From a virus: a DNA stretch of 64,000 nt. The notes under the pieces are model-generated. The model did not search any database. It saw nothing but the letters and a program-made list of their open reading frames with translations, and was not told the DNA's origin. How positions within the stretch are numbered: the first letter of the stretch is position 1; every line of letters begins with the position of its first letter. Positions 27,353 to 51,305 of this stretch are shown piece by piece. The stretch lies in IMG/VR virus record IMGVR_UViG_3300004369_000010, positions 1-64,000 of that record, one strand, 5' to 3'. A program made the position numbers and the translations under genes.

Positions 27353-28906
27353 TCAGAAGGTGTTCAGAAAAGCCGTAAATTGCTCGTTACCTGCGGGATC
27401 ATACAGGGGCCATTGCTCAGCAAGCCAACTATGCGCCTCCGCATGAGTCTTGCCATAACGCTTCATATACCAGGCTTTCAGGATGAAGCCAGTTCGGCTA
27501 CGGCCAGCATGGCAATGAACAAGAACATCACGACCCTCACTCAACCAAGCATCAATAGTCTGAAGACAATCCCAAACAACCAGACCCAACTCGTGGTTGT
27601 CAACAGAGTTATCAATCAAGTAGATCTCTCGCCTAACAGGAACATGATCAATATGCCCGAATGTTCGGCACAATGACAAAACAGCCGTATCCGGGCTAAC
27701 AGTTTTTGCTCCCCCCAAATTTGACGCGTAGACTCCAGTAGCGTCCACCTTGGCAGGTAGAGCAACAGGCTCTTCCAATGTCTGAGGAACAACGTTTAAG
27801 TTGATCAGGCTTCTAGCAATATCACTTAACTTGGCGTAATTATATGCAAGCCGCGAAGGACGCTTATCCCCCTTTTCATTGAATGGAGAATCAACATGAC
27901 CATTCAGATATGTCGTGAAACGAGAAGGGATCGCTTGAATCCCGTACAGCGATCCAGCCAGCGCGCCAGCAACACACGCTACAGTATCGGTATCTCCGCC
28001 CAAGTTAATTGCTGACACGACTGCATTTTCAAATCTTTCACTGAGCGGTATACCAAATTCGGAATTTTTTACAGCCCAGTACGCTTGCGCAAGACAAACC
28101 CACGCTGAACCATTTGAACCTTCAAGCAAGGCTGAATTGGGTTCATCAGGTGAATAATCTTCTAGGATTGAATACGCAAAGGTGATCGGATCACAATCAA
28201 CCGATTCCTCAATGTAGTCGTATGTTTTAGATTGGGTCATTGCATCAATTGCGGCTTCCATCATTCCGTATGCTGAAACCGCATCTCCAACAATTGCTGA
28301 TCGAATCATGGTCGCAGCAAGACCGGCACACAGCGCTCCGCGGACGTCATAATGAGTCAAGCGCGCTTGGCGAAACGCAACAGAAAATGTGTCTGCAGCG
28401 CTGTAACGGGAACCCCAAATTCCAATTGGGCTTACTCGCATCACCGATCCGTTGCCTCCACTTGCACCACGCTTTGCGTGACCTATGGCAGCAGCGTCTA
28501 TATAGTTGTGTCCACTGTACAAAGCGCTGGCTGTAGTCGTTCCAACATCGCGCGCTGTTTTCGCCCAATGAACAAACCGGTTAAATATGTCATCAGGGCT
28601 GTAGGAAAGATTATTGGCAATCAATGATTCGGCAATACACAATGCCATCTGCGTATCATCAGTGAACTCGGCGGGTTTCCAGCCGAAACCGCCACCGCCA
28701 ACCATCTGCCCAATACCACCGTGTTTTCCTAATCCGGGGAATTTGTCATATTGGTTTGCTGGACCAAACTCAAACGGTGCGCCCAGAGCATCGCCAACAG
28801 CTTGACCCACTAAAGCGCCTATCGCAAAGGGCTTGTACTCATGTAGGTCATCATTAGTAATTCGTTTTGGGGATGGGGATTTAAATGTAGTTTCAAGTAA
28901 TGTCAT
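27353..28906 (-). CDS. ADP-ribosylglycohydrolase (DraG/ARH family) fused to a CX5R dual-specificity-type phosphatase
   Basis: GDALGAPFEF, FTDDTQM, GNGSVMR and GGDTDTVACVAGALAG ARH motifs; C-terminal VLVHCHAGRSRT P-loop. Confidence 0.92.
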   Translation of the reverse strand: MTLLETTFKSPSPKRITNDDLHEYKPFAIGALVGQAVGDALGAPFEFGPANQYDKFPGLGKHGGIGQMVGGGGFGWKPAEFTDDTQMALCIAESLIANNLSYSPDDIFNRFVHWAKTARDVGTTTASALYSGHNYIDAAAIGHAKRGASGGNGSVMRVSPIGIWGSRYSAADTFSVAFRQARLTHYDVRGALCAGLAATMIRSAIVGDAVSAYGMMEAAIDAMTQSKTYDYIEESVDCDPITFAYSILEDYSPDEPNSALLEGSNGSAWVCLAQAYWAVKNSEFGIPLSERFENAVVSAINLGGDTDTVACVAGALAGSLYGIQAIPSRFTTYLNGHVDSPFNEKGDKRPSRLAYNYAKLSDIARSLINLNVVPQTLEEPVALPAKVDATGVYASNLGGAKTVSPDTAVLSLCRTFGHIDHVPVRREIYLIDNSVDNHELGLVVWDCLQTIDAWLSEGRDVLVHCHAGRSRTGFILKAWYMKRYGKTHAEAHSWLAEQWPLYDPAGNEQFTAFLNTF

Positions 28907-36684: not shown

Positions 36685-37452
36685 TCACTTACCCCACGCT
36701 GGGCATGCTGATTTGAACGCACACCAATTGCAAAGCGTTGATTTGACTGGCTCAAAATTTCCTGTCTCACAGCGATGATCTATTCCTTCTTTTGTTTTAA
36801 GAATTACCTGTGTGGCATCTTCTATTCGTTTTGTTGTGACTTGCCTAGATAATACGACCGGCTTTTTAAGGTATATGAGATCAAGTCGTTTTGCTTCACC
36901 TATACCCATGCTTAGCATCAGCGCGGCATAAACCGAAAGTTGGAAAAACTTATCCTCTTCCCACTTAGCCGCTGGAACCTTGCCCGTTTTGTAGTCGGAA
37001 ATAACAATTTTCCCATCAGTTTCATCAACTGTAAACCTATCAATGAAACCCTTGAGTTGAACTCCTTCTACCGACCCATTAAGTTCAAACTCAATGCCGT
37101 CTAATTCTGTTTCAGTAGGCTTTTCTACTTTCCACAAGTTTTCAATACAAAACCAAGCGTTCCACCGAAAATTGTTAAAAGCAGTCGGATGGACATAGCC
37201 TTCTACCTCCATTACATACTTGTCATCCCAGATTTTTCTAGCAATGTTTCGTGCCGTCTGCTGATCGCGCATATCTGGATCAGTTGCATATAAAACTTCT
37301 AGCACTTCATGAACGAAATTTCCAAGCAAACTTGCCTCGCTGGGCGGCTCTGGAAGTCGATCAATACGCGAATATTTAAACCGCAATGGACACTGTTTGA
37401 AGGTGTTGATAGACGACGGCGACAAATATTCAGGCGCTTTAAGTGCTGACAC
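36685..37452 (-). CDS. RecB/Cas4-like PD-(D/E)XK exonuclease
   Basis: LSPSSI..FKQCPL, GNFVHEVLE, GFIDR, ISDYKTGK, QLSVYA and CNWCAFKSAC. Confidence 0.9.
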   Translation of the reverse strand: MSALKAPEYLSPSSINTFKQCPLRFKYSRIDRLPEPPSEASLLGNFVHEVLEVLYATDPDMRDQQTARNIARKIWDDKYVMEVEGYVHPTAFNNFRWNAWFCIENLWKVEKPTETELDGIEFELNGSVEGVQLKGFIDRFTVDETDGKIVISDYKTGKVPAAKWEEDKFFQLSVYAALMLSMGIGEAKRLDLIYLKKPVVLSRQVTTKRIEDATQVILKTKEGIDHRCETGNFEPVKSTLCNWCAFKSACPAWGK

Positions 37453-38678: not shown

Positions 38679-39983
38679 TCAGACGATAATAGCCGCCCGC
38701 TTTCTCTGAGGCAACCCTAGACCAGCAAGAAAAGTAAAGGCACTAACCGCCGAGTCAACTTGGTCATCATGATTAGCGGCTTCTGGGAAGGAAGCAAACT
38801 CATCCATCCATTCCGTCAACCAATGCCCTCTAACGACTCGCACATTTCCGTTCGCAACCGCTGCCGCAAAAGGACGCGCCCTGGTTAGCTTGTCTCCAGT
38901 GGATCGGATACCACTGAAATCGTACCCTGGTACGACATAACGGGCGTATTGGTCGCAAAGCGCCTTACCAGATGATCCTGGTTCCTGTTCCATTCGAATA
39001 GAAACAGCCGGTCCATCTTCGTAGGCGGTTTGGGCTATTAGTTGTTCAACTTTGTCACCTTTAGCACGTATTTTTTTTACATCTAAGATATAAGCAATTC
39101 CTTGGTCAAACAGCATGAGGGTCCCGACAGTCCAGTCAGGATCAGGATTGCTCTGAGAAGGTTCAGTGGCCGCCAAGTCCCAAAACCGTACAATTCGGGC
39201 AGAAGAACTGATCTGGGGAACCTCGTGACCGTCAATGATGATAAAAGACTCCCGCTCGAAGAGCGATCCAAGTGTCGTTGACCACCAATCACCTTCCTCT
39301 AGACGGCGGCGCTCAACCGGATCCAAGGCTTGCAGGGACTGTCGATAGGATTCAGCGTCAATACCTGGGTTGTCGGTCAGTTTAGAGGGTACAAAAATTC
39401 TGCCGGTGGAATGTCCTTCCACGATGAAGCGTTGTCGAACCCAGTTGGGGGCTGGGTTTGAGGCAGCCCTCATGCGCAGTGGCACCTTGGCTAACGGTCC
39501 GGATGCTGGACGGCGAAGTCGAGAGAATAGGTAACGATAATCGTTCTCCCGTATTTCTGTAACTTCATCCATGCCTATGAATTGAAATTCAGCACCCTTA
39601 TATCGAAGATAGTCCTGGCTGTTGTTCAAATATCCGAATGAAATACGAGCTCCCGATGGAAACATGGCTGTATAATTATTCGCGTTCCATCTAATATCAT
39701 CATACTGAGCAACCCACGACTGAAAGCGATCCATGATCGCTCCAGGGAGTGCCAGGTCTGCATAAGTGCGACGGAAAAGAATAGCCGAATAACCAGGCGT
39801 GTCAACAAACTGCAATGCCGCCATAAGGAGAGCACTTGACTTGCCACCACCAGCGGCACCCCCAAACAAAGCCTCCAAAGAATTTGTCCTCAGAAACACT
39901 TTTTGAGTGACGGATGCTTCCTCTGGACAAAATAAAGGTTTCTTGGGTTCCAGAAATTCTAAAACCTGTTTCCAGTCAGCCAT
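38679..39983 (-). CDS. terL: Terminase large subunit
   Basis: GGAAGGGKS Walker A, FIGMDEVTE Walker B, ASNP, nuclease RFWDLAAT and HDDQVDSA. Confidence 0.93.
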   Translation of the reverse strand: MADWKQVLEFLEPKKPLFCPEEASVTQKVFLRTNSLEALFGGAAGGGKSSALLMAALQFVDTPGYSAILFRRTYADLALPGAIMDRFQSWVAQYDDIRWNANNYTAMFPSGARISFGYLNNSQDYLRYKGAEFQFIGMDEVTEIRENDYRYLFSRLRRPASGPLAKVPLRMRAASNPAPNWVRQRFIVEGHSTGRIFVPSKLTDNPGIDAESYRQSLQALDPVERRRLEEGDWWSTTLGSLFERESFIIIDGHEVPQISSSARIVRFWDLAATEPSQSNPDPDWTVGTLMLFDQGIAYILDVKKIRAKGDKVEQLIAQTAYEDGPAVSIRMEQEPGSSGKALCDQYARYVVPGYDFSGIRSTGDKLTRARPFAAAVANGNVRVVRGHWLTEWMDEFASFPEAANHDDQVDSAVSAFTFLAGLGLPQRKRAAIIV

Positions 39984-40242: not shown

Positions 40243-42483
40243 ATGGCATGGAACTCTCGGCAGACCAAGAACCTCGGTAGCGACACCAGTTCAAAAGCGA
40301 TGCCACTAGGTCCTGGAGCGCCAGTATCCGTAAACACGGGTCTAGCAGGTCGTGCCTATCGTGACTCCTGGGATATTGAACGCGCATATCGCGAGGGTAT
40401 GCAAAAGGTTGTCTGGGTAAATCGATGCATTGATGCAATCGCTGGAAACCAAGCCCGACTTCCAATGATCCTCCGTAAGGACAACAGCCCAAACGGTCAA
40501 GTAATAGATCGCAAACATGCCCTACTAGACATCTTCAACTCAAAAGCCAATATTGGCGAAAACGCTTTCGTCTTCCGATACAGAGTTTCCAGCCAGTTAC
40601 TTATGTCATCTCGTGGCGTTTTTATTGAAAAAGTCTACGGACGCGATGGTGGAATCATCGCACTAAACCTGCTACCACCACAGCACACATCGCCAATCCC
40701 AGATCCAAAGCGTTTCGTTGCTGGATACCAGGTTGATCTCCCCTCTGGACACAAGCAAATCGTCAAAGCCGAAGATGTGGTGTGGATTCGTCGTCCACAC
40801 CCGTTAGATCCGTACCTATCTCTTACGCCCATGGAATCAGCGGGTATTGCAATTGAGATTGAAAACCTGGCTCGGATCTACAACCGAAACTTCCTTCTCA
40901 ACGATGGTCGGCCTGGAGGACTACTCGTTCTCCGAGGTGAAATTGACGACGACGATAAAGACGAACTCAAGAGCCGTTTTAGAGGAAACCTCAATCGGGC
41001 TGGTTCCGTATCGGTTATCTCATCAGACGACGGCGCTGATTTCATTGACACCGCTTCCAACCCCAGAGATGCCGCCTATGTACAAATGCGTCAACTCACC
41101 AAGGAAGAAATCCTCGCAGCTTTCGGTGTACCCGAATCGGTAATTGGCAACGCATCTGGTCGAACATTCTCAAACGCCAATGAAGAAATGCGTGTCTTTT
41201 GGATGGAAACCATGATGCCCCATCTGGAGCCAATCGCGCGAGCCTATGATGAACTTGACCCCAAGTACTACATTGATTTCGATACCAGTGATGTTCCAAT
41301 CCTGATCATGGCCAAACAGGAGCGGGAACGCTACCTCATGGACGAATTCAACAATGGTCTAATTTCAGCAAACGAATATCGTGAAGGTAGCGGGCGCAAA
41401 ACGCTTGACTCCGAAATTGCCGATCAACTACTCAATAGCCCACAATTGGTTCCAATTGCCAACACAGAAAAACCTTTCAGTATTGAAGAGCAAACCCCCA
41501 TTGCTGAGGCAGGAGCAATACCTGGCGGGCCAGATCAAATGCCCCCCAGAGGAGAACAAGCACCTCCCCCTGGCCCTGGCGGTGAACCAGGTGGCCCAGG
41601 AACAGCGCCTGGCGGTAGCCCCACCTCACCAGCCGCCGAAACACCCGCTACCGCAATTGAACCAGTTCCCGAAGGTCAACTATCTGCTGGCTACGGTGGC
41701 ATAGAAACCAAAACTGCTGATACAGCGGCTTACTACGATGAATGGGACACGAAGGCCGAACAAAGCGTAGATCGTTGGACAGAGATCCTGGATGCGTCAC
41801 TTGAACGAATCTTTCAGCGTCAGCAACGGGTAGTTCTTGAAAAGGCTTTTGGCGCAAAAGCACGCAAGGCGATGAAGGACAACTCACTCACTGTTGAAAC
41901 AGTCTTTGACATTGACGCATGGAATCGTCAGTTGCGAGATGACATCACGCCAGTGATCAACGGAATCATCGCTGATGCGTCCGAAAATGTTTCGTTAGAA
42001 GCCAAAATGGACTCAACGCCCGATCCAGTTGAAGCGGCTGAATATGTTGAGTCTCAAATGACTCGCATGGAAAAAGTGAACGAAACCACCAAGGAAGAAA
42101 TCTCTGCAGCTCTTCTCGTCGCTATGGCGCTCGGCGCAGAGGAAGACGAACAGAGGAACAGTCTTCTTCGAGCAGCGCTAGCAGCAATCTTCGCCAACCT
42201 TCTCGGTAAGAGGCGCCGCATTATTGCCGAACACGAATCATCAACGGCTTTCAATGCTGGAACATATCTTGCTGGTCGGCAAATTGGCTCTTTGTCAAAG
42301 CGTTGGGTTAGCCGACGAGATGAACGTGTACGCGACGCTCACCGTGTTCTAAACGGCCAAAAGGTTGGATTGACAGAAACCTTCAATGTTGGTGGTTTTC
42401 CTCTCCGCTTTCCTGGTGATCCCTTGGCTCCGCCGTCGCTCACCATCAACTGCCGTTGCCGTCTACGGTTCACTAATGACTAA
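40243..42483 (+). CDS. Portal protein (HK97-type) fused to a MuF (Mu gpF) head morphogenesis domain
   Basis: Portal motifs FLLNDGRPGG, EILAAFGVPESVIG, ISANEYR; Pro/Gly linker; MuF motifs KRWVSRRDERVRDAH...FPGDP...INCRC. Confidence 0.9.
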   Translation: MAWNSRQTKNLGSDTSSKAMPLGPGAPVSVNTGLAGRAYRDSWDIERAYREGMQKVVWVNRCIDAIAGNQARLPMILRKDNSPNGQVIDRKHALLDIFNSKANIGENAFVFRYRVSSQLLMSSRGVFIEKVYGRDGGIIALNLLPPQHTSPIPDPKRFVAGYQVDLPSGHKQIVKAEDVVWIRRPHPLDPYLSLTPMESAGIAIEIENLARIYNRNFLLNDGRPGGLLVLRGEIDDDDKDELKSRFRGNLNRAGSVSVISSDDGADFIDTASNPRDAAYVQMRQLTKEEILAAFGVPESVIGNASGRTFSNANEEMRVFWMETMMPHLEPIARAYDELDPKYYIDFDTSDVPILIMAKQERERYLMDEFNNGLISANEYREGSGRKTLDSEIADQLLNSPQLVPIANTEKPFSIEEQTPIAEAGAIPGGPDQMPPRGEQAPPPGPGGEPGGPGTAPGGSPTSPAAETPATAIEPVPEGQLSAGYGGIETKTADTAAYYDEWDTKAEQSVDRWTEILDASLERIFQRQQRVVLEKAFGAKARKAMKDNSLTVETVFDIDAWNRQLRDDITPVINGIIADASENVSLEAKMDSTPDPVEAAEYVESQMTRMEKVNETTKEEISAALLVAMALGAEEDEQRNSLLRAALAAIFANLLGKRRRIIAEHESSTAFNAGTYLAGRQIGSLSKRWVSRRDERVRDAHRVLNGQKVGLTETFNVGGFPLRFPGDPLAPPSLTINCRCRLRFTND

Positions 42484-44408
42484 TGGCCCCACGCAGACCT
42501 CTTCGTATAGAGCCGTACAATAACGATGCGGTAGATGCCGACAATGACGGCATCGTCCAAGAAGACACAGCCTGGGAACGCCCAGCAGGAACTCGCCTCC
42601 TTGATGCGCTAGGTCAAGCAATCCGCAACGGGATGACTTCCCAAAGTCGCCCATCGGGAATACGAGTCGTTGACCGAGACGGTAATCCTGTGGCCTACAA
42701 GCCACGAGCAACCCCGGTTGGCAAAACACCCAAACCTAGAAGTCCGCTTGGCCCCACATTGGGTGATAGGCAAAGAACTCTGGGAGAAATGATCCCGTCA
42801 CTAGGACAAACCATCGGCACTCTTGAAGATCGACGCAAGCCGAAACCAATCAGAGTCAGTCAGGAAGATGCCAAACCGCGTCAGGCTGAACCCCCAAGAA
42901 AGTTCACTGTTCCAACATTTACCGCGCCTCTGCTTGGCGAGCAACTCATGTCCAAACCTGGATTCACATCGAAAGATCTGTTTGATAAGGACACTGGACG
43001 GTACATCAAGGAACGACGCAAACTTCATCGTTCAATTGTTGGGTTTTATCTGCAGAAGGCAAAGCCCAGATCTCCAGAATCGCAAGAAGAAAAAACTGTT
43101 TGGTTTTTGGGTGGTGGCGCTGGTTCAGGTAAATCTAGCGCGATCAAGAGCGGCGCTATTGGTGTCCCGTCCGACCTGCTTCGCGTAGATCCAGACGAAA
43201 TAAAAGATTTCATTCCCGAATATCGCACATGGCTATCTGGTGGCGACGGACGAGCGGCAGAGTTCGTCCACGAAGAATCAAAACACATTTTTGAGCACAC
43301 CGTTCACGGTTTGGTGCAGCTCAACGCCGACTTTGTGTATGACACAACCGGTAATGGTTCTTACGACAAAATGGCAAAGAAGGTTCAAGACCTTCGGCGC
43401 AACGGCCATGTCATCAAAGCCCGATATATGACCATCAGCATTGACGAAGCGATTCGACGCGCAGAACTCCGTGAACAAACGACTGGCCGTCGTGTTCCAC
43501 GACATCAAATCATTCACAACCACCAAGAAGTATCCACCAATGTGATTCGTGGTATTGCTGACGGACTATTTGATGAACTTGAGTTATACGATAACGACGG
43601 ATCGCAACCAACAAAGATCCTTGAAGTTAAGAATGGCAAAGTCAAGATCCTTGACCCGCAAGCCGTTGACCGATTCATGGCGAAATCCCCTTCGTTGAGT
43701 CGATCCCCTGGCAAGACTCCAGCAGGAGTTCATGAAGATCTTGAAAAAGGAAAGTCAGCTTCCAATGTTCTGGGACAAACTTCCAGGGTCGATGCCAGAA
43801 CCGCGTGGGCTGGATACCTTGCAGATGACTACAAAGAAATGAACTATGTGCTTCGTGAAGGTGGAGACGGTCTATCCGACGAGGAATACAACGAGGTAGC
43901 ACAGAAAATCAACGATTTTGATGAGTACTTTGACCACGCAAGTTTTTCACTGATCCAGCCTGTGAAGGTGTACAGAGGAACTCAGGAATACCTTTCGGAT
44001 GACATTGATGTTTCTGAACTTGCCCCTGGTGAGGTGTACAAACTTTTATCCGCTCCTGAGATCGGAACCAAGTTTCGCGAAGATGCCTACTCCTCGGCTA
44101 CTGAAAGTCTTGATATTGCCGAAGACTTTGCACTCGGGAAGGCCGATGTGGAATCCCTGAGCTATTCGGAAGGGCCATCTATTCCCGTTGTGATGGAAAT
44201 TAATATTCCTCCCGGTCTCAGGATGCTTCCAGGAACCACATATGAGAAAGAAGTGATCCTTGAGCGGGAAACACGGTTCAAAGTTGTTGACTACATCACG
44301 CAATACACAGAAAGTGGCGATTCCTATCAGTTGTTGAAAGTTGTTGCAATTCCTCCTCGCAAAAAGCAACAGCCACTAGAACTAGCGGAGATTGATGATG
44401 ACTACTAA
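42483..44408 (+). CDS. Zeta-toxin-like P-loop kinase fused to an R-S-E ADP-ribosyltransferase (VIP2/Alt-like)
   Basis: Kinase motifs GGGAGSGKS, VDPDEIK, VYDTTG, TGRRVP; ART motifs VKVYRG, AYSSAT, YEKEVILERETRFKV; TAATG-coupled to portal-MuF. Confidence 0.85.
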   Translation: MAPRRPLRIEPYNNDAVDADNDGIVQEDTAWERPAGTRLLDALGQAIRNGMTSQSRPSGIRVVDRDGNPVAYKPRATPVGKTPKPRSPLGPTLGDRQRTLGEMIPSLGQTIGTLEDRRKPKPIRVSQEDAKPRQAEPPRKFTVPTFTAPLLGEQLMSKPGFTSKDLFDKDTGRYIKERRKLHRSIVGFYLQKAKPRSPESQEEKTVWFLGGGAGSGKSSAIKSGAIGVPSDLLRVDPDEIKDFIPEYRTWLSGGDGRAAEFVHEESKHIFEHTVHGLVQLNADFVYDTTGNGSYDKMAKKVQDLRRNGHVIKARYMTISIDEAIRRAELREQTTGRRVPRHQIIHNHQEVSTNVIRGIADGLFDELELYDNDGSQPTKILEVKNGKVKILDPQAVDRFMAKSPSLSRSPGKTPAGVHEDLEKGKSASNVLGQTSRVDARTAWAGYLADDYKEMNYVLREGGDGLSDEEYNEVAQKINDFDEYFDHASFSLIQPVKVYRGTQEYLSDDIDVSELAPGEVYKLLSAPEIGTKFREDAYSSATESLDIAEDFALGKADVESLSYSEGPSIPVVMEINIPPGLRMLPGTTYEKEVILERETRFKVVDYITQYTESGDSYQLLKVVAIPPRKKQQPLELAEIDDDY

Positions 44409-44679
44409 AAAAGATCCGCGCCAACCGCACCGCTATCATTTTTCACTAAGTGAACTAAAGCGCGATCGATCATCGGCGCCCTCATTTCAGCAACCGGTAT
44501 CACAGGACAGATTCCTTGACATGATGAAAGGCGACACGCCTATTACTCCAGGTAGTCAAGAAGAAACAGATATAAATCAAGCAAAAAACGGCGAAGTTAT
44601 ATTAGATAACATATGGACGCCTGGCGATACTTACACCACAGAAGAATGGCGAAAAAATTTGGATGATTCCCTTGACTAA
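44392..44679 (+). CDS. Hypothetical protein overlapping the toxin stop (candidate immunity protein)
   Basis: Small ORF with a GGAG RBS immediately after the toxin-like gene. Confidence 0.5.
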   Translation: MMMTTKKDPRQPHRYHFSLSELKRDRSSAPSFQQPVSQDRFLDMMKGDTPITPGSQEETDINQAKNGEVILDNIWTPGDTYTTEEWRKNLDDSLD

Positions 44680-44776
44680 CTAAAAACTTCGGTTAGTATG
44701 CATATCGCCACCCCCGCAGCTCGGGTCGCTCTAGGCTGCTGGAGGTGGCACTTCACTCTCTAACCGAAAGTTAATT

Positions 44777-45232
44777 ATGAAACAGTTACTAGCAAGCATC
44801 GGCTTCGTATCTATTATGGGAATTTCAGCGTGTGGTGGCGATACCGTATATGTAATTCAGGAACCCACAACAACAGTTCCCAAAAGCACAACAACAGTCA
44901 CTGAAGCGCCAGCAGAAACTCGACCCCCTGTGAGTTTGCCGTCTGGAGGCGGACACAACTCCAGTTACGATCCTGACGCCTACGACGACGCAATCTGGAG
45001 TGAAGCCAACGACTTCTGGTGGTTGTTCTCCACGGAACAACTCCTTCAGATGGGTTTGATTATCTGTGAAGAGTTTGACCGAGGGCAAACACTTGATCAG
45101 GTGACTGCCAGCATGGTTGAAATCCTCATCAATACCGGAACTGCTGACCTGATGGAAGGCACAGCCGTCATGATGGCCTCCGCGTTGTTCCACCTATGTC
45201 CCGAGCATAGTTGGTGGGTTTCCACCATCTAG
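44777..45232 (+). CDS. Lipoprotein with a DUF732-like domain
   Basis: Lipobox ISAC, Thr/Pro linker, GLIICEEFDRG...ASALFHLCPEH. Confidence 0.7.
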   Translation: MKQLLASIGFVSIMGISACGGDTVYVIQEPTTTVPKSTTTVTEAPAETRPPVSLPSGGGHNSSYDPDAYDDAIWSEANDFWWLFSTEQLLQMGLIICEEFDRGQTLDQVTASMVEILINTGTADLMEGTAVMMASALFHLCPEHSWWVSTI

Positions 45233-45293
45233 TAATGCTTGACATGATCAGTGAAATGTTGGATCATGTACGCACATAACTGAAGGGACGCTC

Positions 45294-45929
45294 ATGACAT
45301 TGACCTATGGGTCACTTTTCTCGGGAGTTGGCGGCTTTGACCTCGGCTTTGACCAGGCTGGCTACGAATGCCAATGGCAAGCCGAGTGGGATAAACACTG
45401 CCAACAAACACTCGCACACCATTGGCCCAACACCAAACTTTATGGCGATGTGCGTGAAATCTCCGGGAAAGAACTCACCCCCGTTGATGTGATCACCTAC
45501 GGATCGCCATGCCAGGATCTTTCCGTCGCAGGAAAACGAGCCGGTATTGAGGGCGGTCGATCCTCAATGTTCTTTGAAGCCACACGAATCATCCAAGAAA
45601 TGCGAGATGCAACACATGGAACCTATCCAAGAATCACTATTTGGGAAAATGTCCCCGGAGCTCTCAGTTCCAACAAAGGAGAAGACTTCCGGGCCGTCCT
45701 CCAAAAATTGGATGACATCGGGGCATTGGCGCAATGGTGGAGTGTCCTGGACGCACAATACTTCGGAGTCCCCCAAAGGCGTCGACGAGTGTTCGTCGTC
45801 TCTGTCTTTGATCCTGCAGTCGCAGAACGAGCCGGGTCTGGAGAAATATTCCCTCTCGGGGAAGGCCGCCGAAGGAATCTTAAGAAGAGCAACAAGACGA
45901 GGGAAGACTCTTCCTCCCCTCTTGGATGA
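45294..45929 (+). CDS. C5 cytosine DNA methyltransferase, N-terminal part (motifs I-VIII)
   Basis: SLFSGVGG, GSPCQDLS, WENVPG and PQRRRRVF. Confidence 0.92.
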   Translation: MTLTYGSLFSGVGGFDLGFDQAGYECQWQAEWDKHCQQTLAHHWPNTKLYGDVREISGKELTPVDVITYGSPCQDLSVAGKRAGIEGGRSSMFFEATRIIQEMRDATHGTYPRITIWENVPGALSSNKGEDFRAVLQKLDDIGALAQWWSVLDAQYFGVPQRRRRVFVVSVFDPAVAERAGSGEIFPLGEGRRRNLKKSNKTREDSSSPLG

Positions 45930-45975
45930 GGCGCTAAGAAATGTGGTGGACAAAGCGGCGGAGAGCCCAAAGTGA
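45547..45975 (+). CDS. Alternative-frame methyltransferase-associated subunit (M.EcoHK31I beta-like); start probably 45607 or 45616
   Basis: Nested in the +1 frame; ends SSLSLILQ...KYSLSGKAAEGILRRATRRGKTLPPLLDEAL. Confidence 0.6.
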   Translation: MRAVDPQCSLKPHESSKKCEMQHMEPIQESLFGKMSPELSVPTKEKTSGPSSKNWMTSGHWRNGGVSWTHNTSESPKGVDECSSSLSLILQSQNEPGLEKYSLSGKAAEGILRRATRRGKTLPPLLDEALRNVVDKAAESPK

Positions 45976-46855
45976 CTCTGATTTTGAAACTTGGATAGAG
46001 GGTGGGGTGTGTCCAACATTGAACGCATTTGATAACACTGGAGACAGCCGAGCCACCGTGCTTATCTTCACCGCCCAACGAGTCGGTGAACCTCCCCGAA
46101 TTTATGAAGATGTCACCCCTGCTTTGCTAAGCCGAATGGGAACTGGAGGGAATAACACTCCAATGATTGTTTTTAGTCATACGCAAGGTTTGGATGCTCA
46201 GCCGTCAGAAGTGGCTAGCCCAACACTTCGAAGCAATGGAGGTGGCATGGCTGTGGCCTACAACTTTGATGAATTTAACTTCACTGGTGGTGAAGAAGTT
46301 CATCACTCAATCCGTTCTGGGACACGACAGTCAACGGGTGTGGTTGTTTATCCTGATCCTGCTGGTTCCGGGATTGTTGACAATGATGGGATTACTGTGG
46401 TTGCTCCCATTCAGGATGGCCGTGATATAGATAAACATCAGAACGGTTTGGGTGTGGGTGGCGTTGGCGATCCTATGTACACCTTGGATACTACTGGCGG
46501 TCAGGCTGTTGCTATTGGGCATGATCCGATTGTGTTCACTCAGAATCAGCGTGATGAGGTTCGTGATTTGAACGGGGTTGCTGGCGGTTTGCAGGCATCT
46601 CAGGGTTCGCATCAAACTAATTATGTTGCAACTCAGGATGGTTCGGATCAAGCGGTTCGTACCACTGTGGTAAGAAGGTTGACTCCGGTTGAGTGTGAGC
46701 GTCTGATGGGTTGGCCTGATAATCACACTTTGTATCGTGCCGACGGTAAAACGAATAGTGATTCCACCCGATACAAGATGTGCGGTAATGGTGTTGCAAC
46801 ACCGGTTGCCCAATGGATCGCTGAGCAGATTAAACCGTTATTGGAGGAAAACTGA
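45941..46855 (+). CDS. C5 methyltransferase C-terminal part (TRD modules + motifs IX/X)
   Basis: Repeated PTL/PAL/YTL TRD-like segments; RRLTPVECERLMGWPD...RYKMCGNGV. Confidence 0.88.
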   Translation: MWWTKRRRAQSDSDFETWIEGGVCPTLNAFDNTGDSRATVLIFTAQRVGEPPRIYEDVTPALLSRMGTGGNNTPMIVFSHTQGLDAQPSEVASPTLRSNGGGMAVAYNFDEFNFTGGEEVHHSIRSGTRQSTGVVVYPDPAGSGIVDNDGITVVAPIQDGRDIDKHQNGLGVGGVGDPMYTLDTTGGQAVAIGHDPIVFTQNQRDEVRDLNGVAGGLQASQGSHQTNYVATQDGSDQAVRTTVVRRLTPVECERLMGWPDNHTLYRADGKTNSDSTRYKMCGNGVATPVAQWIAEQIKPLLEEN

Positions 46856-46935
46856 TGGGCGGCTGGGGATATCTATTGACCTTACCTGTTCTACTTGCAC
46901 TCATTCTTGTAGTCGGCTCTCTACACGATGATTAG
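46855..46935 (+). CDS. Tiny membrane peptide (26 aa)
   Basis: GGAGG RBS and TGATG coupling; MGGWGYLLTLPVLLALILVVGSLHDD. Confidence 0.45.
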   Translation: MGGWGYLLTLPVLLALILVVGSLHDD

Positions 46936-47023
46936 ATAAATCTAACCGACCGGGAGTTCTGTTATATAAAACTTTAAACAACCAACAACGAAACCCCCAA
47001 AAAAAAATTTTTGAGAGGACCCT

Positions 47024-47197
47024 ATGCACGAATTAGTATTTCAACCAACAAACAACATCAACAACCTCATTGAAACATTAAAAAACAGCGAACAAACAAT
47101 CTGCCACCAAGCAGCAAACATGCTCCAACAACTACAAACAGAACTAGCTCACACACAACACCAATACAAACAACTACAACAAAAACTCACTCAATGA
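47024..47197 (+). CDS. Hypothetical protein (57 aa, A+C-skewed)
   Basis: GAGGA RBS; ATGA overlap with the next gene. Confidence 0.5.
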   Translation: MHELVFQPTNNINNLIETLKNSEQTICHQAANMLQQLQTELAHTQHQYKQLQQKLTQ

Positions 47198-47970
47198 CCA
47201 GTTACCACGAAGCCACACAGCACTACACCCTACGATCCAACAACGCCCACAACGAACTACAACGCTGGCTCAACCTCCCCAACAAACAACCCGTCATCAA
47301 CACCCTCCAAAACCACAACAGCGAAATCTTCGAAAACCTCCAACCCAAAGACATACAACACGTCGTACAACACACCGAAAACGCCCTCGGACCATCATCC
47401 AGACGCATCGGAGAAACAGTCACACCCATCCGAGACTGGAACCCCAACTATGCGTTCAACCACGTACTACACCACGTAACCGCACAACTACAACACCTAC
47501 CCACCTGGCAAGAATTCCGAAACTACGCCTCCCAAGACCCCCACACCCGCACCATGCTCTGGGAACCAGCCCAACAAATCAGCCAACACGCCCACACCGC
47601 AGGCTGGACCACCACACACATCAAAAACGCCATGCAATGGCGCATCGGCAACGCCTACTACTCATTCATCCGAGAAGCCTACATCGTCGCCCAACTCAAC
47701 AACGCAGGACTCACCCCCAAATACCACCCACTCGTCGACTCCCTCTTCAAAGTAGACCTCTGGGTCAACAACACCAACATCAACCTCTACATCGGCAACC
47801 ACATCTACCGACACAACCAAACCGGACGCAAAACCACCTCCACACAACTCCTCAACGACGCCACACCCCCCTACAAAAACATAGACATCCAACTACCCAC
47901 ACAACACACCTACGGCAACGTACACCTACCAAAACAAGACGCCATCAACACCCTCCTCAACCAACTCTAA
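47194..47970 (+). CDS. Hypothetical protein, possibly a PD-(D/E)XK nuclease
   Basis: 258 aa; MQWRIGNAYYSFIRE...YHPLVDSLFKVDLWV; nearly all codons end in A or C. Confidence 0.55.
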   Translation: MTSYHEATQHYTLRSNNAHNELQRWLNLPNKQPVINTLQNHNSEIFENLQPKDIQHVVQHTENALGPSSRRIGETVTPIRDWNPNYAFNHVLHHVTAQLQHLPTWQEFRNYASQDPHTRTMLWEPAQQISQHAHTAGWTTTHIKNAMQWRIGNAYYSFIREAYIVAQLNNAGLTPKYHPLVDSLFKVDLWVNNTNINLYIGNHIYRHNQTGRKTTSTQLLNDATPPYKNIDIQLPTQHTYGNVHLPKQDAINTLLNQL

Positions 47971-48008
47971 AAAACAGCGGCCAACAAACAAAAACACCCC
48001 AACACACA

Positions 48009-48293
48009 ATGGCAAACCACAACTACATCACCCAACTCCTAGAAAAAATACAACAACAAGAAAAAACAATCCAACAACAACACAACAGACTCACCACCCA
48101 AGAAAAAACCATACTCAACCTCATGCAAGAAATACAAGAAGCCGAAACAACAACAAAACAACTCACACACCACACACAACAACTCATCGACCACATCATC
48201 AAAACCAAACCCCCCATCCCCACACAAACCCTCCACAACCTCCAACAAACACTCACCGAAACAGAAACAATCCCCATCTACCAACACCCCTAA
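48009..48293 (+). CDS. Hypothetical Gln/Thr-rich coiled-coil protein
   Basis: MANHNYITQLLEKIQQQE...; lies in the A+C island. Confidence 0.4.
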   Translation: MANHNYITQLLEKIQQQEKTIQQQHNRLTTQEKTILNLMQEIQEAETTTKQLTHHTQQLIDHIIKTKPPIPTQTLHNLQQTLTETETIPIYQHP

Positions 48294-48296
48294 ACA

Positions 48297-48392
48297 ATGA
48301 CCAACAAAACCATCGACATCGCCCTCACCATCATCAGCGCCACCATCACACTCGCCATCCTCGTCACCATCGCAATCACCGGACGAGACTAA
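48297..48392 (+). CDS. Tiny membrane peptide (31 aa)
   Basis: MTNKTIDIALTIISATITLAILVTIAITGRD. Confidence 0.4.
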   Translation: MTNKTIDIALTIISATITLAILVTIAITGRD

Positions 48393-48519
48393 ACACACCC
48401 CACCCCAAACCAGATAAATCTAAACAGAATAAGCCCATAAGGGGCTGTAATTACTCCCCCCCATAGGTTGACGGCGGGTCGGAAGTCCCGTGACGTCGTT
48501 GGGTTGTTGGCTGCTGTTG

Positions 48520-48609
48520 TGTCGATGTTCCTGTCGATGTTCCTGTCGATGCTGCCTGTCGATGCTGCTGCTTGTTGCTGCTGCCCGTGTTGTGGCTGCC
48601 CGTGTTGTG
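48520..48609. repeat. Short direct repeats in the G+T-rich non-coding tract
   Basis: TGTCGATG x4 (48520, 48532, 48544, 48557); GCTGCCCGTGTTGTG x2 (48580, 48595). Confidence 0.8.
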
Positions 48610-48672
48610 TTGGTTGGTGTGTGGTTCGGGGGCGTGTTTGGGGAGGGTGTTTTTGGGTAGGGGTTGGTTGTG

Positions 48673-48701
48673 AGTGTATCCGCTCAGATGCGTCATGTCA
48701 A
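48673..48701 (-). promoter_or_regulatory. Leftward sigmaA-type promoter
   Basis: TTGACA-17-TACACT on the minus strand. Confidence 0.6.
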
Positions 48702-48737
48702 CTCGTTGGGGTGTGACATTGTTGACATGACTGGGGG

Positions 48738-48766
48738 TTGACATGGCTAGGGTGGTTTTGTAGTAT
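48738..48766 (+). promoter_or_regulatory. SigmaA-type promoter
   Basis: TTGACA-17-TAGTAT, followed by a hairpin, an RBS and ATG 48815. Confidence 0.7.
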
Positions 48767-48814
48767 CAATGTTGTTGGGAGAGAGGCTCCCCGAGAGGCA
48801 GAAAGGACAGTGCC

Positions 48815-49096
48815 ATGAAGGTCAATCTCAGAGAGTGGAAGGAGGGCGAGTTGATGGTCGGGTATCAGCAGTTTGAGAAGGACCTGGCCGACCTTGCTCG
48901 CCACGTGGAGCATTACCAGGGTCTCATCAAGGAGTGGGGCATTGAGCAGGTGGTCGCCCACTTCGCAGGCCTGGGCGCGGCCTCAGGGACCATCGGGTCG
49001 GAGTTCCATCGCATGGTGGCCGACGCAAATCGCCTGGTGGGAACCAAGTTCCTGGTCGGAGTCCTCCGAAACCAGGAAGAGCAGGCCGAGGCCTGA
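48815..49096 (+). CDS. Hypothetical protein
   Basis: Own promoter, AAAGGA RBS and downstream hairpin. Confidence 0.7.
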   Translation: MKVNLREWKEGELMVGYQQFEKDLADLARHVEHYQGLIKEWGIEQVVAHFAGLGAASGTIGSEFHRMVADANRLVGTKFLVGVLRNQEEQAEA

Positions 49097-49163
49097 GCGA
49101 CCGAGGGGGTCGGCCCGAAAGGGTCGGCCCTCGTCAGTTCCCCCCCAAAAAACCCAACAGGAG

Positions 49164-49192
49164 TTGACATGGACTGTGGGGTGGGGTACAGT
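49164..49192 (+). promoter_or_regulatory. SigmaA-type promoter
   Basis: TTGACA-17-TACAGT. Confidence 0.7.
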
Positions 49193-49240
49193 GAAACACA
49201 TCGGGAACACAAGGTTCCCACCGACACAAGGAGGCAACCA

Positions 49241-49408
49241 ATGAGCGGAACAGCAGACGGATGGCGTGACCCCGCACGAGACCACGCCCTCGCATTCACC
49301 CTGAAATGGGCAGAGCGAACAGGCAAAGACCCGCATGGGACAGAAGCCGAAGAAGTGTACGAGCAAGCGTTCCTGGATGCTTGTGACGCAATGGACGCAA
49401 GCCGATGA
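49241..49408 (+). CDS. Hypothetical protein
   Basis: AAGGAGG RBS; MSGTADGWRDPARDHAL... Confidence 0.65.
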   Translation: MSGTADGWRDPARDHALAFTLKWAERTGKDPHGTEAEEVYEQAFLDACDAMDASR

Positions 49409-49575
49409 GATACGACATCAAACAGAACTACGACACCGGTCTCTACCATGTCGTGGACACAGCCTGTGGCAACGCCCCCCTGTGGGGTGAAGAGTACGCC
49501 GACCGAAGCGAAGCCGTGAAGCGAGCCAAGCAGTTGGATCGGACAGCATTACCGATTCCGAGAAGGAGTCGTTGA
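49405..49575 (+). CDS. Hypothetical protein (56 aa, not in the ORF track)
   Basis: ATGA overlap; MRYDIKQNYDTGLYHVVDTACG... Confidence 0.55.
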   Translation: MRYDIKQNYDTGLYHVVDTACGNAPLWGEEYADRSEAVKRAKQLDRTALPIPRRSR

Positions 49576-49787
49576 GTCTCACAGCGTAAGGGCGACACGT
49601 CGTCAGGCACTGGCGTCAAACCATGGAGCGGCTCTCATACCGTCCCTGTACCCCTCAGAGCGGGGTCTCCTAATGCCAGAAGCGTCACCCTCCGCCTCTC
49701 ACCCTATGCCTCGGGGTGAAGACGGCGACATGACGACACCACCTCCATGGGACGCACCCCTCGCCGCAAGGCGGGGGGTGTTCTCAT

Positions 49788-50039
49788 TCACAGACCGAAA
49801 CGACGGAACAGATCAGCCCTCTCCGGAAGCCACCGAAACAAGTGACCCGTCAGATACGCCCAGAACAACACCAAGCCAGGACGCCCCAACCGCCGAAGCG
49901 ACATCCGATGGAACGACGCCGACATCGTCGGCTGCCCAACCCGGATCGCAACCAGATCGTAGATGGCGATGTAGACAGCCAACCCACCCCAAGCCAACAA
50001 GCCCACATCGACAGGGGCGGGACTCTTACCTTGCGTCAT
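49788..50039 (-). CDS. Small membrane protein
   Basis: LAWGGLAVYIAIYD...TMS...WAYLTGHL. Confidence 0.6.
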   Translation of the reverse strand: MTQGKSPAPVDVGLLAWGGLAVYIAIYDLVAIRVGQPTMSASFHRMSLRRLGRPGLVLFWAYLTGHLFRWLPERADLFRRFGL

Positions 50040-50184
50040 GCGTGCGAAGAGGATGGCCCGGAGGGAGCAGCTGACGTTTCTTCCCGGCTTTCGTACCGGC
50101 AACAGTTTCGACTTCACCGGTTTGCGGGTTGACCCGAGTGCGGCCACCACCGGAGCCGCCATTGCCTTTCCTGCTCTTACCCAT
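50026..50184 (-). CDS. Small basic protein (52 aa, not in the ORF track)
   Basis: GGAGG before ATG; MGKSRKGNGGSGGGRTRVNPQTGEVE... Confidence 0.5.
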   Translation of the reverse strand: MGKSRKGNGGSGGGRTRVNPQTGEVETVAGTKAGKKRQLLPPGHPLRTHDAR

Positions 50185-50223
50185 GCCTCCCAGTATGACG
50201 CATCACATCAGGAGTCCCGTGGA

Positions 50224-50553
50224 TCATCGATTGTCTCCATCGCCGCTGATCGTCCCAGCAGCTTGTCGAGCAGCTAGTTTCGACAAGTTGAATCGAGCGA
50301 TGTCGTTGAGATCGACACCGAGTTGTTCGGCAAGTTGAGCGCAATACCAGAGAACATCACCGATCTCAGCGCAGATGCGGGTTTGTTGATCCTCATCGAA
50401 GACGCTGTTGTTGTCTCGGATCGTTTTCTTGACTTTCCCAGCGACCTCTCCAGCCTCGGACACCAAGCCAAGTGCCAGATAGTAGATGCCTTCGTTCCCT
50501 TTCGGGTAGTGGGCTGTTGTGTTTGACGCGCTTTGGTACACACTGAAGTCCAT
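50224..50553 (-). CDS. MazG-like nucleotide pyrophosphohydrolase
   Basis: LGLVSEAGEVAGKVKK...EIGDVLWY...NLSKL; start MDFSVYQ. Confidence 0.88.
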   Translation of the reverse strand: MDFSVYQSASNTTAHYPKGNEGIYYLALGLVSEAGEVAGKVKKTIRDNNSVFDEDQQTRICAEIGDVLWYCAQLAEQLGVDLNDIARFNLSKLAARQAAGTISGDGDNR

Positions 50554-50570
50554 ATTGATCCTTTTGACAG

Positions 50571-50645
50571 TCCCCAGACAGGGAGTTGAACCCTGAAAGC
50601 GGGTGTTTATAAGACACCCCGCCCCAACCGGGAGCACCCCTGGGG
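50571..50645 (-). tRNA. Atypical tRNA-Ile(UAU)
   Basis: Acceptor CCCCAGG/TCTGGGG-A; D stem GCTC/GGGC; anticodon arm GGTGT-CTTATAA-ACACC; T arm CAGGG-TTCAACT-CCCTG; no encoded CCA. Confidence 0.75.
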
Positions 50646-50651
50646 GCGGGT

Positions 50652-51305
50652 CTACTGTAGCCCAAATCTCCAGTTGAGGAAAACGCCTGCTTCATCAGAC
50701 AAGCCCATTGACAGGGCGAGATGGGCGGCGTCAGGGTCATCCCAGTCGGTGGTGTCGTCAAGTAGTGCTCCGGTGAGTACCTCAACATATTCGTTGTTTC
50801 TGAGCGTTTCTGGGCCTTCTGAGTGAAGAAGTGTGCCCCAAATCAACGACTTTCGGGATTTAGCAGTAAATGGCAAGCCGCAGATGTGAAGTCCATCACC
50901 CCCATCTTCAACATGAACCACCGACACACACTCGGTCACCCGCCCCTTCTTGTCCTCCAAATACGCTTCAGCCAGATCCTTCCCTTTTGAGAACTCCGGA
51001 TCGCTCGACATCCAGCCCTCCGCCAAAATACTGAACGCATCACACCCCCAACCTTTGCGCATCACAGCAGCAGCAGTCCCGATGCGCCACACCTTCTCCT
51101 CTTCATCAGTTGAATCCCCCCACGCTTCATCGAGCTGAGCAACAACCTTCAAATAGTCGCCCCTCCAGCCCATCACGTTGATTGACAGTTGCTCCCCGAT
51201 CCCAAACTCGGACAACAAATGCTCTTTTGCTGATTTGCCGACAGCCACAGCCAGGGAAACCTTGGCAACAGAGTCCGGATAGATGCCTTCCACACGACGC
51301 ACCAT
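50652..51305 (-). CDS. Hypothetical protein
   Basis: 217-aa ORF with a GAAAGGG RBS. Confidence 0.6.
   Translation of the reverse strand: MVRRVEGIYPDSVAKVSLAVAVGKSAKEHLLSEFGIGEQLSINVMGWRGDYLKVVAQLDEAWGDSTDEEEKVWRIGTAAAVMRKGWGCDAFSILAEGWMSSDPEFSKGKDLAEAYLEDKKGRVTECVSVVHVEDGGDGLHICGLPFTAKSRKSLIWGTLLHSEGPETLRNNEYVEVLTGALLDDTTDWDDPDAAHLALSMGLSDEAGVFLNWRFGLQ

Follow-up and report, generated by a model that had tools for sequence, protein, structure and literature searches.

The window analysed here (64 kb, the first part of a single 72,255-bp virus contig, IMG/VR record IMGVR_UViG_3300004369_000010) carries at 46968–48463 an island of 1,496 nt whose plus strand is overwhelmingly A and C, and which ends at 48463 in a flip to a G+T-rich plus strand. 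Specific to this window are switches of the skewed state among close orthologues, one-directional base changes that include transversions, and a skew that is purest beside a non-coding region of repeats and promoter-like sites. The explanation that we favour, with a confidence somewhat short of even, is a position-anchored, strand-specific mutation pressure tied to DNA synthesis starting at about 48.46 kb. The nearest described phenomenon is the class of skewed regions named GRINS (PMC8256042), and the island appears to be a single-copy skew domain of that type.

The A+C island and its composition

The island and the elements at its edges are as follows, with open reading frames abbreviated as ORFs and amino acids as aa.

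46968–48463, plus strand: A+C island, from cumulative-skew change points and base composition
47024–47197, plus strand: 57-aa ORF, helical; third-position A+C 0.89; ribosome-binding-like site GAGAGGA upstream
47194–47970, plus strand: 258-aa protein of an uncharacterised family, with homologues and an AlphaFold model; third-position A+C 0.95
48009–48293, plus strand: 94-aa coiled-coil-like ORF with one homologue (P0278); third-position A+C 0.99
48297–48392, plus strand: 31-aa hydrophobic ORF, a putative membrane peptide; third-position A+C 0.97
46934–46945, plus strand: left copy of the 12-bp direct repeat AGATAAATCTAA, exact match
48412–48423, plus strand: right copy of AGATAAATCTAA, exact match
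46994–47012, no strand assigned: C5-A9-T5 run at the left switch, read directly from the sequence
48432–48446, no strand assigned: 5-bp hairpin, terminator-like on the minus strand
48456–48462, no strand assigned: C7 run at the flip, read directly from the sequence
48464–48800, no strand assigned: non-coding G+T-rich tract, the candidate anchor; keto fraction 0.65–0.82, with tandem arrays and promoter-like sites

The cumulative skew places the change points at 46967 and 48463. Between them the plus strand has base frequencies of A 0.40, C 0.38, G 0.10 and T 0.12, the minus strand being G+T-rich. The G+T fraction of 0.216 compares with 0.476 (standard deviation (sd) 0.027, minimum 0.409) in 1,496-nt windows elsewhere on the contig, and thus lies 9.6 sd below equal-length windows in the rest of it. 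In 100-nt windows, the keto (G+T) fraction is 0.475 (sd 0.063) outside 45900–48900, falls to 0.09–0.32 inside the island and then rises to 0.80–0.82 at 48551–48700. Mean GC skew over 46946–48411 is −0.60 and mean TA skew −0.55, compared with 0.12 and 0.13 in the rest of the contig (averaged as mean absolute values in 150-nt windows, step 30). The two skews are correlated, with r 0.64 within the island and 0.94 over 46200–48780. The only other 200-nt stretch of the 72,255-bp contig with a keto fraction <0.32 is a mild one at 49798–50017, and further mildly skewed patches at 52.1, 57.3, 62.2 and 69.1 kb are far weaker and have no mirror partner.

An initial annotation of this DNA had already described the island, at about 46960–48420, and the change points bear this out; its counts of 54 A+C in 60 nt at 48061–48120 and 55 G+T in 60 nt at 48601–48660 are exact. 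It had also remarked that the island ORFs use A/C-ending codons and are enriched in Q, T, N and H, in agreement with the third-position A+C of 0.89–0.99 found here. In its left switch motif, at 46994–47012, the A run is A9 and not A10; C7-ATAGG lies at 48456–48467. The 3' part of the upstream methyltransferase gene, which it called G+T-rich, is so to a moderate degree (third-position G+T 0.56–0.82, back to 0.57 by 46721–46852).

Within the genes the bias is strongest where the code leaves most freedom: positions 1 and 2 of the four island ORFs have A+C of 0.48–0.86, below the third-position values listed above. With ATG and TGG excluded, 0 of 270 codons at 47503–48389 carry G or T at the free third position. 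Since the bias shows codon periodicity, the island ORFs are real genes. Moreover, the spacer 47971–48008 and the 3' end of the island are as A/C-rich as third positions, indicating that the pressure acts on nucleotides rather than on codon choice. For the same reason adaptation to codon or tRNA supply was rejected; the 258-aa ORF uses the codon read by tRNA Ile-UAU two times. Nor is there a general rule of an A/C-rich sense strand, the 3' part of the methyltransferase gene being G/T-rich on its sense strand. At the protein level, Q, T, N and H are raised, and Pro shows no clear rise. The sole tRNA gene in the window is a tRNA-Ile (50570–50645, minus strand) whose anticodon TAT reads ATA.

Each island edge carries one copy of AGATAAATCTAA, and these are its only two exact copies in the 72-kb contig. 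About 12 pairs of 12-mers at spacings of 200–3000 nt are expected by chance in 72 kb, so the repeat is at most a hint of modular exchange. We do not claim it as proof of a mobile cassette, such chance pairs being common.

Polarity of the flip and the candidate anchor

Left of 48463 the minus strand is G+T-rich and right of it the plus strand, so that the outgoing 5'→3' strand is keto-rich on both sides. Replication origins have this polarity. Purity is highest beside the flip: going leftward, third-position G+T is 0.00 for about 960 nt and 0.04–0.06 (4–6%) in the three codon bins beyond, while on the right arm it fades through 0.58, 0.42 and 0.36. The effect is local, reaching about 1.5 kb leftward and about 0.4–0.6 kb rightward.

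Directly right of the flip, about 340 nt contain no gene. An open minus-strand frame at 48454–48744 has A+C of 0.73, 0.74 and 0.68 by codon position; as it lacks codon periodicity, we rejected it as a gene and read it as non-coding. This region holds arrays of direct repeats, as iteron-type replication origins do, namely three short tandem arrays within 48520–48609 (48520–48564, 12 nt × 3.7; 48550–48584; 48580–48609), and divergent promoter-like sites at 48701–48673 (minus strand) and 48738–48766 (plus strand). Arrays and divergent sites lie 10–300 nt right of the flip, and the tract also contains a cluster of GTTGACATG promoter-like sites. At the left switch, the run at 46994–47012 contains a terminator-like site on the minus strand. 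Rfam gave no match in 44000–51000 at E ≤ 1.

Of GTTGACATG the window has 7 sites on the plus strand and 5 on the minus strand, most of them on the right arm. The 8-mer core of the tandem arrays, TGTCGAYG, recurs in non-coding G+T-rich stretches of the right arm (48520–48557, 54312, 54392, 62316 and 62340). TGTCGAYG may be a regulator site and GTTGACATG the −35 motif of early promoters.

The island persists across samples

The island is present in contigs of three samples of one study (S1, S2 and S3) with 0–1 differences. A 1,594-bp S2 contig covers 46073–47666 and crosses the left junction. In S1, possibly the source of the window DNA, a contig of 7,848 bp extends from 46859 to beyond 49500. 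The right junction is bridged only in that possible source sample, S2 and S3 having low depth and gaps over the tandem arrays. Because three samples share the island, and orthologues from other data sets share its A/C-type make-up, the island is not an artefact.

An assembly chimera or sequencing artefact, against which the initial annotation had cautioned, is thus of practically negligible probability. S1 contigs do break at 46859–46879, close to the left edge, and no listed contig covers about 48451–48568 in S2 or about 48359–48620 in S3. Such an error would nevertheless have to recur in three samples with 0–1 differences, to span the left junction in the S2 contig and 46859–49500 in the S1 contig, to follow codon periodicity and to be common to orthologues from other archives. 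At 49291–49404, contigs of all three runs share a joint that skips 112 nt, its shorter side being only 28 nt; it may stem from a repeat or from a related phage.

Close orthologues occur in both states

The bias can be followed in the proteins encoded by other genomes. We scored A/C-type residues, that is, those with only A and C in the first two positions of their codons (K, N, T, Q, H and P). The family of the 258-aa protein has 298 representatives at E ≤ 0.001; close to the window protein are six homologues at 40–71% identity and two further cluster members. The A/C-type fraction is 0.46–0.56 in P0001, P0002, P0004, P0005 and P0280, and 0.20–0.27 in P0003, P0279, P0006, P0007 and eight locus-translated homologues (L005 left out). 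Among 149 listed family representatives it is 0.223 (sd 0.031, maximum 0.292). Distant homologues with readable DNA, found in metagenome and genome scans at 33–43% identity, have a normal composition (keto 0.45–0.53), so the bias is not a property of the family. The same bias in homologues at other genomic positions was the initial annotation's own condition for refutation; close orthologues do share it at the protein level, which leaves that check ambiguous. The island had no DNA or protein match in phage records, and scans of viral contigs found no relative.

The 94-aa ORF has a single homologue, P0278 (73% identity, A/C-type fraction 0.60), which is encoded on the same 3766-bp contig as P0002. 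As both proteins are of A/C type, the neighbouring phage has kept the cassette and its bias together.

Phylogenetic trees were built from 15 and from 30 sequences. They group the eight closest proteins in a single clade (100/97) that divides into two subclades (100/99 and 99/94). Both subclades mix biased and unbiased members, the unbiased P0003/P0279 and P0006 being nested with biased ones. The maximum-likelihood (ML) trees require three state changes; since raw site patterns do not back the placement of P0003 beside P0001, two is the firm count, and the state switched at least twice among close orthologues. The unbiased members sit on long branches, as a single gain with two losses might produce; on this point a stationary model is untrustworthy.

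Base changes run one way and include transversions

Base changes at codon positions 1 and 2 were inferred from amino-acid differences in four comparisons, which are not independent. From unbiased P0003 to biased P0001, G>A changes number 28 as against 2 A>G; the corresponding ratios are 9:1 for T>C, 10:0 for G>C and 13:0 for T>A. From P0006 to P0004 they are 59:1 for G>A, 18:0 for T>C, 14:2 for G>C and 13:1 for T>A. Changes between the unbiased P0003 and P0006 are symmetric. When polarised by outgroups, the derived changes in four biased proteins are G>A 11–24, T>C 1–6, G>C 4–6 and T>A 3–6, compared with 0–1 of each reverse kind and 0 for both C>G and A>T. Transversions make up 26–38% of the keto-to-amino changes at these positions, and the replacements F>Y, S>T, E>Q and D>H are recurrent. 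As a control, changes derived in the unbiased sisters had to be dropped: selecting sites at which the biased sequence retains the ancestral residue enriches for A/C-type residues.

The initial annotation had proposed C>T and A>G deamination of single-stranded DNA, to be seen as directional G>A and T>C in an alignment of homologues. That direction is found, but these changes are not alone: the one-directional changes include transversions (derived G>C 4–6 and T>A 3–6), so deamination alone is insufficient. As judged from these inferred changes, a transition-only process, whether plain deamination or the tautomer idea of the GRINS authors, would not predict the spectrum. Moreover, A↔C exchanges account for 45–73% of the inferred changes between biased proteins and for 17–22% in unbiased pairs, which indicates that the pressure lasted through their divergence.

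A possible mechanism and its alternatives

The data show the skew, with its purity, polarity, persistence, reversibility and substitution spectrum; its link to a start of DNA synthesis, like the enzyme responsible, is what we infer. A strong and lasting pressure on one strand would swap G and T for A and C on the plus strand left of about 48463, with the mirror image to its right, and purifying selection would spare G and T only at sites required by proteins, start codons or signals, leaving a four-gene accessory cassette recoded yet functional. DNA synthesis would repeatedly start in the non-coding repeat and promoter region at 48.46–48.8 kb and run outward for about 1 kb; it would be error-prone, or would leave DNA poorly repaired, and the outgoing strand would become G/T-rich. 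A cassette lying beside the start point would be recoded, and a cassette moved away would relax. A polymerase that over-inserts G and T from a fixed site could give all four changes together with the observed polarity, and bypass of damaged or abasic sites on one strand could have the same outcome. That a fixed phage site triggers short-range error-prone synthesis, or a strand-specific failure of repair, which rewrites unprotected bases within about 1.5 kb, is a tentative and rather doubtful proposal.

Several observations weigh against anchored synthesis. Such synthesis leaves the G+T hump in the methyltransferase gene (46103–46850, peaking at 0.80–0.82 at 46412–46720) unexplained: synthesis would have to start at a second place as well, or the hump would have to be a recombinational import. 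Where the hump borders on the island, at 46967, the polarity is that of a terminus. On the left the island stops abruptly instead of fading, and the gradient rests on few sites (7 G/T in 150 codons as against 0 in 270). The hairpins at both switch points are weak: that of the A/T run at the left switch has −3.5 to −4.3 kcal/mol (z −2.6 to −3.1), and neither the fold at the flip (z −0.2 to −0.5) nor the anchor hairpins exceed shuffled sequences. The candidate anchor is not AT-rich (GC 0.58 in 48601–49200). A scan of 18 right-arm ORFs, on a contig that is probably incomplete, revealed no recognisable initiator or polymerase gene, and most small ORFs have no family. Among orthologues, raw site patterns disfavour the ML pairing of P0003 with P0001 (19 sites, compared with 30 for P0001 with P0002), and all orthologue evidence is at the protein level. 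Lastly, cumulative skews of the 72,255-bp contig, a check that the initial annotation had proposed, have no extreme at 48463, which speaks against an origin. Its suggestion of a replication origin therefore stands as regards the polarity, the purity at the flip and the adjoining repeats and promoter-like sites, but the genome-wide footprint of an origin is missing, the skew being local. For its alternatives, a packaging site or genome end and a terminase or translocase signal, we found no evidence; the 72,255-bp contig has no terminal repeat.

Selection on the nucleic acid itself, for a transcript without G and U or for DNA without self-complementarity, could lead to an unstructured mRNA that escapes nucleases or to DNA without palindromic restriction sites. 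It would agree with the one-directional course of all four keto-to-amino changes, transversions too, with the survival of the bias through 45% protein divergence, and with a sense RNA predicted to be near structure-free (−0.005 to −0.156 kcal/mol per nt, as against −0.232, sd 0.043, elsewhere). Furthermore, three of the four ORFs have no ribosome-binding-like site and may depend on an open leader, and a restriction-endonuclease-like gene adjoins a methyltransferase in the cassette. Even so, we hold selection to be distinctly unlikely: positions 1 and 2 retain 14–34% G/T, and removing the last third-position G or T would gain little, yet 0 of 270 remain. On the same coding strand, 300 nt upstream, the 3' part of the methyltransferase gene has the opposite skew; the tract that mirrors the island on its right is non-coding; and there is no clear reason for only this cassette to need such a property. 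GRINS, too, show both signs on one coding strand (PMC8256042). Strong, strand-specific, position-dependent mutation pressure fits more of the data than selection does. Deamination (C>T and A>G) of DNA that stays single-stranded for long periods at a replication origin or packaging end, as the heavy strand of vertebrate mitochondria does, would fit the polarity at 48463, the dominance of transitions among the derived changes (G>A 11–24) and the C7 run at the flip. In ColE1 and in mitochondrial DNA, the place where primers form is marked by G-rich elements of the transcript. We regard it as very unlikely, since transversions that are themselves one-directional form 26–38% of the keto-to-amino changes, the purity is far above that of mitochondrial DNA, the domain spans 2 kb and not the genome, and neither a terminal repeat nor other evidence of a genome end was found. 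Deamination combined with bypass of abasic sites could add transversions, at which point it would shade into the anchored synthesis that we favour.

The skew might also be a relic, brought in with modules that were already skewed or produced by GRINS proper, that is, by conversion with a copy lying off the contig; recombination would have set the blocks in their present orientations, and no pressure would act at the site at present. The exact 12-bp direct repeat at both island edges, the shift of composition in the middle of the methyltransferase gene and a genome that is probably larger than the contig (the 258-aa protein is also on a 124,825-bp contig) would all suit such an import, and the GRINS authors see single-copy skewed regions as a possible early or late stage (PMC8256042). 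We consider it unlikely, for no second copy exists in 72 kb, third positions that are 100% A/C over 270 codons leave no time for decay since import, and mirror polarity together with a purity gradient around one point would be a coincidence. The 12-bp repeat, with about 12 chance pairs expected, carries little weight here.

Genes of the cassette and its flanks

The genes on either side of the island are the following.

45294–45929, plus strand: C5 cytosine methyltransferase, N-terminal ORF (211 aa); PF00145, E 2.1e-49, profile positions 4–161
45941–46855, plus strand: C5 methyltransferase, C-terminal ORF (304 aa); PF00145 profile positions 228–323
48815–49096, plus strand: first gene right of the flip; third-position G+T 0.58 then 0.42, with 0.32–0.37 in the next genes

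The N-terminal methyltransferase ORF has a normal composition (third-position A+C 0.64). In the C-terminal ORF, third-position G+T in 50-codon bins from 46103 is 0.56, 0.70, 0.80, 0.82 and 0.57 (last bin 46721–46852), so that on the left flank the composition shifts within a gene. Many homologues of 210–330 aa cover the whole C-terminal ORF as stand-alone C-terminal halves, and one, P0009, has the same start; the division into two ORFs is thus shared by many homologues, and the enzyme may be a natural two-subunit methyltransferase rather than a broken gene. Between the two ORFs, a third frame (the end of 45547–45975) encodes a GILRRA...LPPLL stretch, which is typical of phage C5 methylases. 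Read from the sequence, both 12-bp repeats lie at or near the end of a hydrophobic ORF: the left one at that of a possible 26-aa ORF (46856–46936, plus strand), which overlaps the stop of the methyltransferase, and the right one 20 nt beyond that of the 31-aa ORF.

The 57-aa ORF has no Pfam match, and a ribosome-binding-like site is absent upstream of three of the four island ORFs. For the 258-aa protein, Pfam, PHROGs, NCBIfam and PADLOC gave no family, and a profile search of Protein Data Bank (PDB) sequences gave no match. Its AlphaFold model has a predicted local distance difference test score (pLDDT) of 91.0 and a predicted template modelling score (pTM) of 0.88. Foldseek returned no match to this model at E ≤ 0.001; a wide structural search returned weak matches only (Z ≤ 5.5, the best being PspGI), nearly all to PD-(D/E)XK nucleases, namely PspGI, AvaII, EcoRII, Vsr, Bse634I, Ecl18kI, Hjc and NgoMIV. 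ESM Atlas gave MjaI/TaqI-like enzymes at template modelling (TM) scores of 0.54–0.61. E161, D182, D188 and K213 are invariant. From these weak fold matches the protein would be restriction-endonuclease-like, with a C-terminal part resembling PD-(D/E)XK enzymes.

We also scanned the neighbourhoods of homologues (10 chosen neighbour ORFs in 8 of 9 loci). A C5 methyltransferase adjoins the homologue in Nocardia (L009), as one does upstream in the window; at the metagenome loci L001 and L003 a NaeI or NgoMIV enzyme takes that place, and the other loci have unrelated neighbours. As a lead, not a result, the cassette could be a nuclease module of restriction or repair type. In L009 (Nocardia anaemiae), a P450-like plus-strand gene downstream of the homologue (9001–10200) has G+T of 0.58–0.70 in 300-nt windows, and a second patch at 15001–15900 has 0.60–0.67; these may be an unrelated GRINS-like tract.

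The source phage

PHROGs identified a large terminase (38679–39983, minus strand), a portal fused to a head-morphogenesis domain (40243–42483, plus strand), a tail sheath and a tape measure protein; the source virus is a contractile-tailed phage. The nearest terminases among phage records, at 44% identity, are those of Gordonia phages, and the sequencing runs that contain the phage DNA are labelled aquatic metagenome. We describe the source as an uncultured actinophage-like myovirus. The 258-aa protein is recorded on a contig of 124,825 bp too, so 72,255 bp is probably just a part of the genome.

Other genes of the window deserve mention. At 40243–44408, next after the portal/head-morphogenesis fusion comes a 641-aa protein that combines a Zeta-toxin kinase domain with an ADP-ribosyltransferase domain, a layout seen in phage head-borne polymorphic toxins. 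A gene at 1–4575 (minus strand, >1,525 aa, running off the contig end) has internal direct repeats with a spacing of about 396 nt, among others, and is probably a repetitive tail fibre. An ADP-ribosylglycohydrolase-like gene (27353–28906, minus strand) lies amid structural genes, and a Cas4-like PD-(D/E)XK nuclease gene (36685–37452, minus strand) lies near the terminase.

Comparison with known systems

Since their description in 2021, intense two-letter strand skews have lacked an explanation; our literature search returned no paper giving a mechanism. The window offers an unusually clean case, a single-copy island of 1.5 kb with four small genes whose free sites are wholly pure, and it pairs a sharp mirror flip beside a candidate start site with orthologues in both states. 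It also constrains any mechanism: the pressure drives G>C and T>A as well, and gain or loss of the state takes less than about 35% protein divergence. If the anchor does start DNA synthesis, such skews could be markers of phage origins readable from sequence alone, and a local mutation process would be seen to reshape protein composition. If a fixed error-prone site is at work, this 2.5-kb stretch would be a minimal, single-copy, phage-borne system for finding the cause of GRINS-type skews, and none of the transition-only mechanisms put forward to date would be compatible with the directional transversions.

GRINS are defined as regions of >500 bp with mean absolute GC and TA skews >0.15 and >80% DNA identity to another region, which lies in the same cluster or genome (PMC8256042). 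The authors regard the mechanism as unknown and propose a transition-only tautomer mechanism; GRINS are reported in Actinobacteria, in endonuclease genes and in phage genes, and still encode functional proteins (PMC8256042). The island agrees in its length of 1,496 nt and in its skews of 0.60 and 0.55, about four times the defining threshold of 0.15. It also shares intense, positively correlated GC and TA skews (r 0.64 and 0.94) with abrupt sign flips on one coding strand, an effect strongest at third positions (A+C 0.89–0.99), and enrichment of Thr, His and Gln with depletion of Gly, Val, Cys and Trp; in the island T, Q, N and H are raised. It differs in that self-BLAST of 46200–48780 against the 72,255-bp contig, which may be incomplete, finds only itself: there is no second copy at >80% identity and no sign of gene conversion. 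Furthermore, the skew of the window covers a whole four-gene cassette with its spacers and is mirror-symmetric about a non-coding point, and its orthologues show directional transversions, unlike the authors' transition-only proposal.

The leading strand of bacteria is rich in G and T, and their skew jumps at origins. The window shares with this asymmetry the polarity at 48463, the independence from gene borders and the non-coding repeat region nearby; its skew is, however, orders of magnitude stronger, is confined to about 2 kb, and has a second flip of terminus polarity 1.5 kb away with no genome-wide skew extreme. In vertebrate mitochondrial DNA, strand asymmetry is ascribed to damage of the strand exposed during one-directional synthesis from a fixed start. 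There, too, the A+C-rich strand carries the gene sense and a G/C run lies near the start, whereas in the window free sites are completely pure, transversions take part and the domain is short. The two-letter skew phenomenon itself, still unexplained, is already described; what is new here is its single-copy, point-anchored form.

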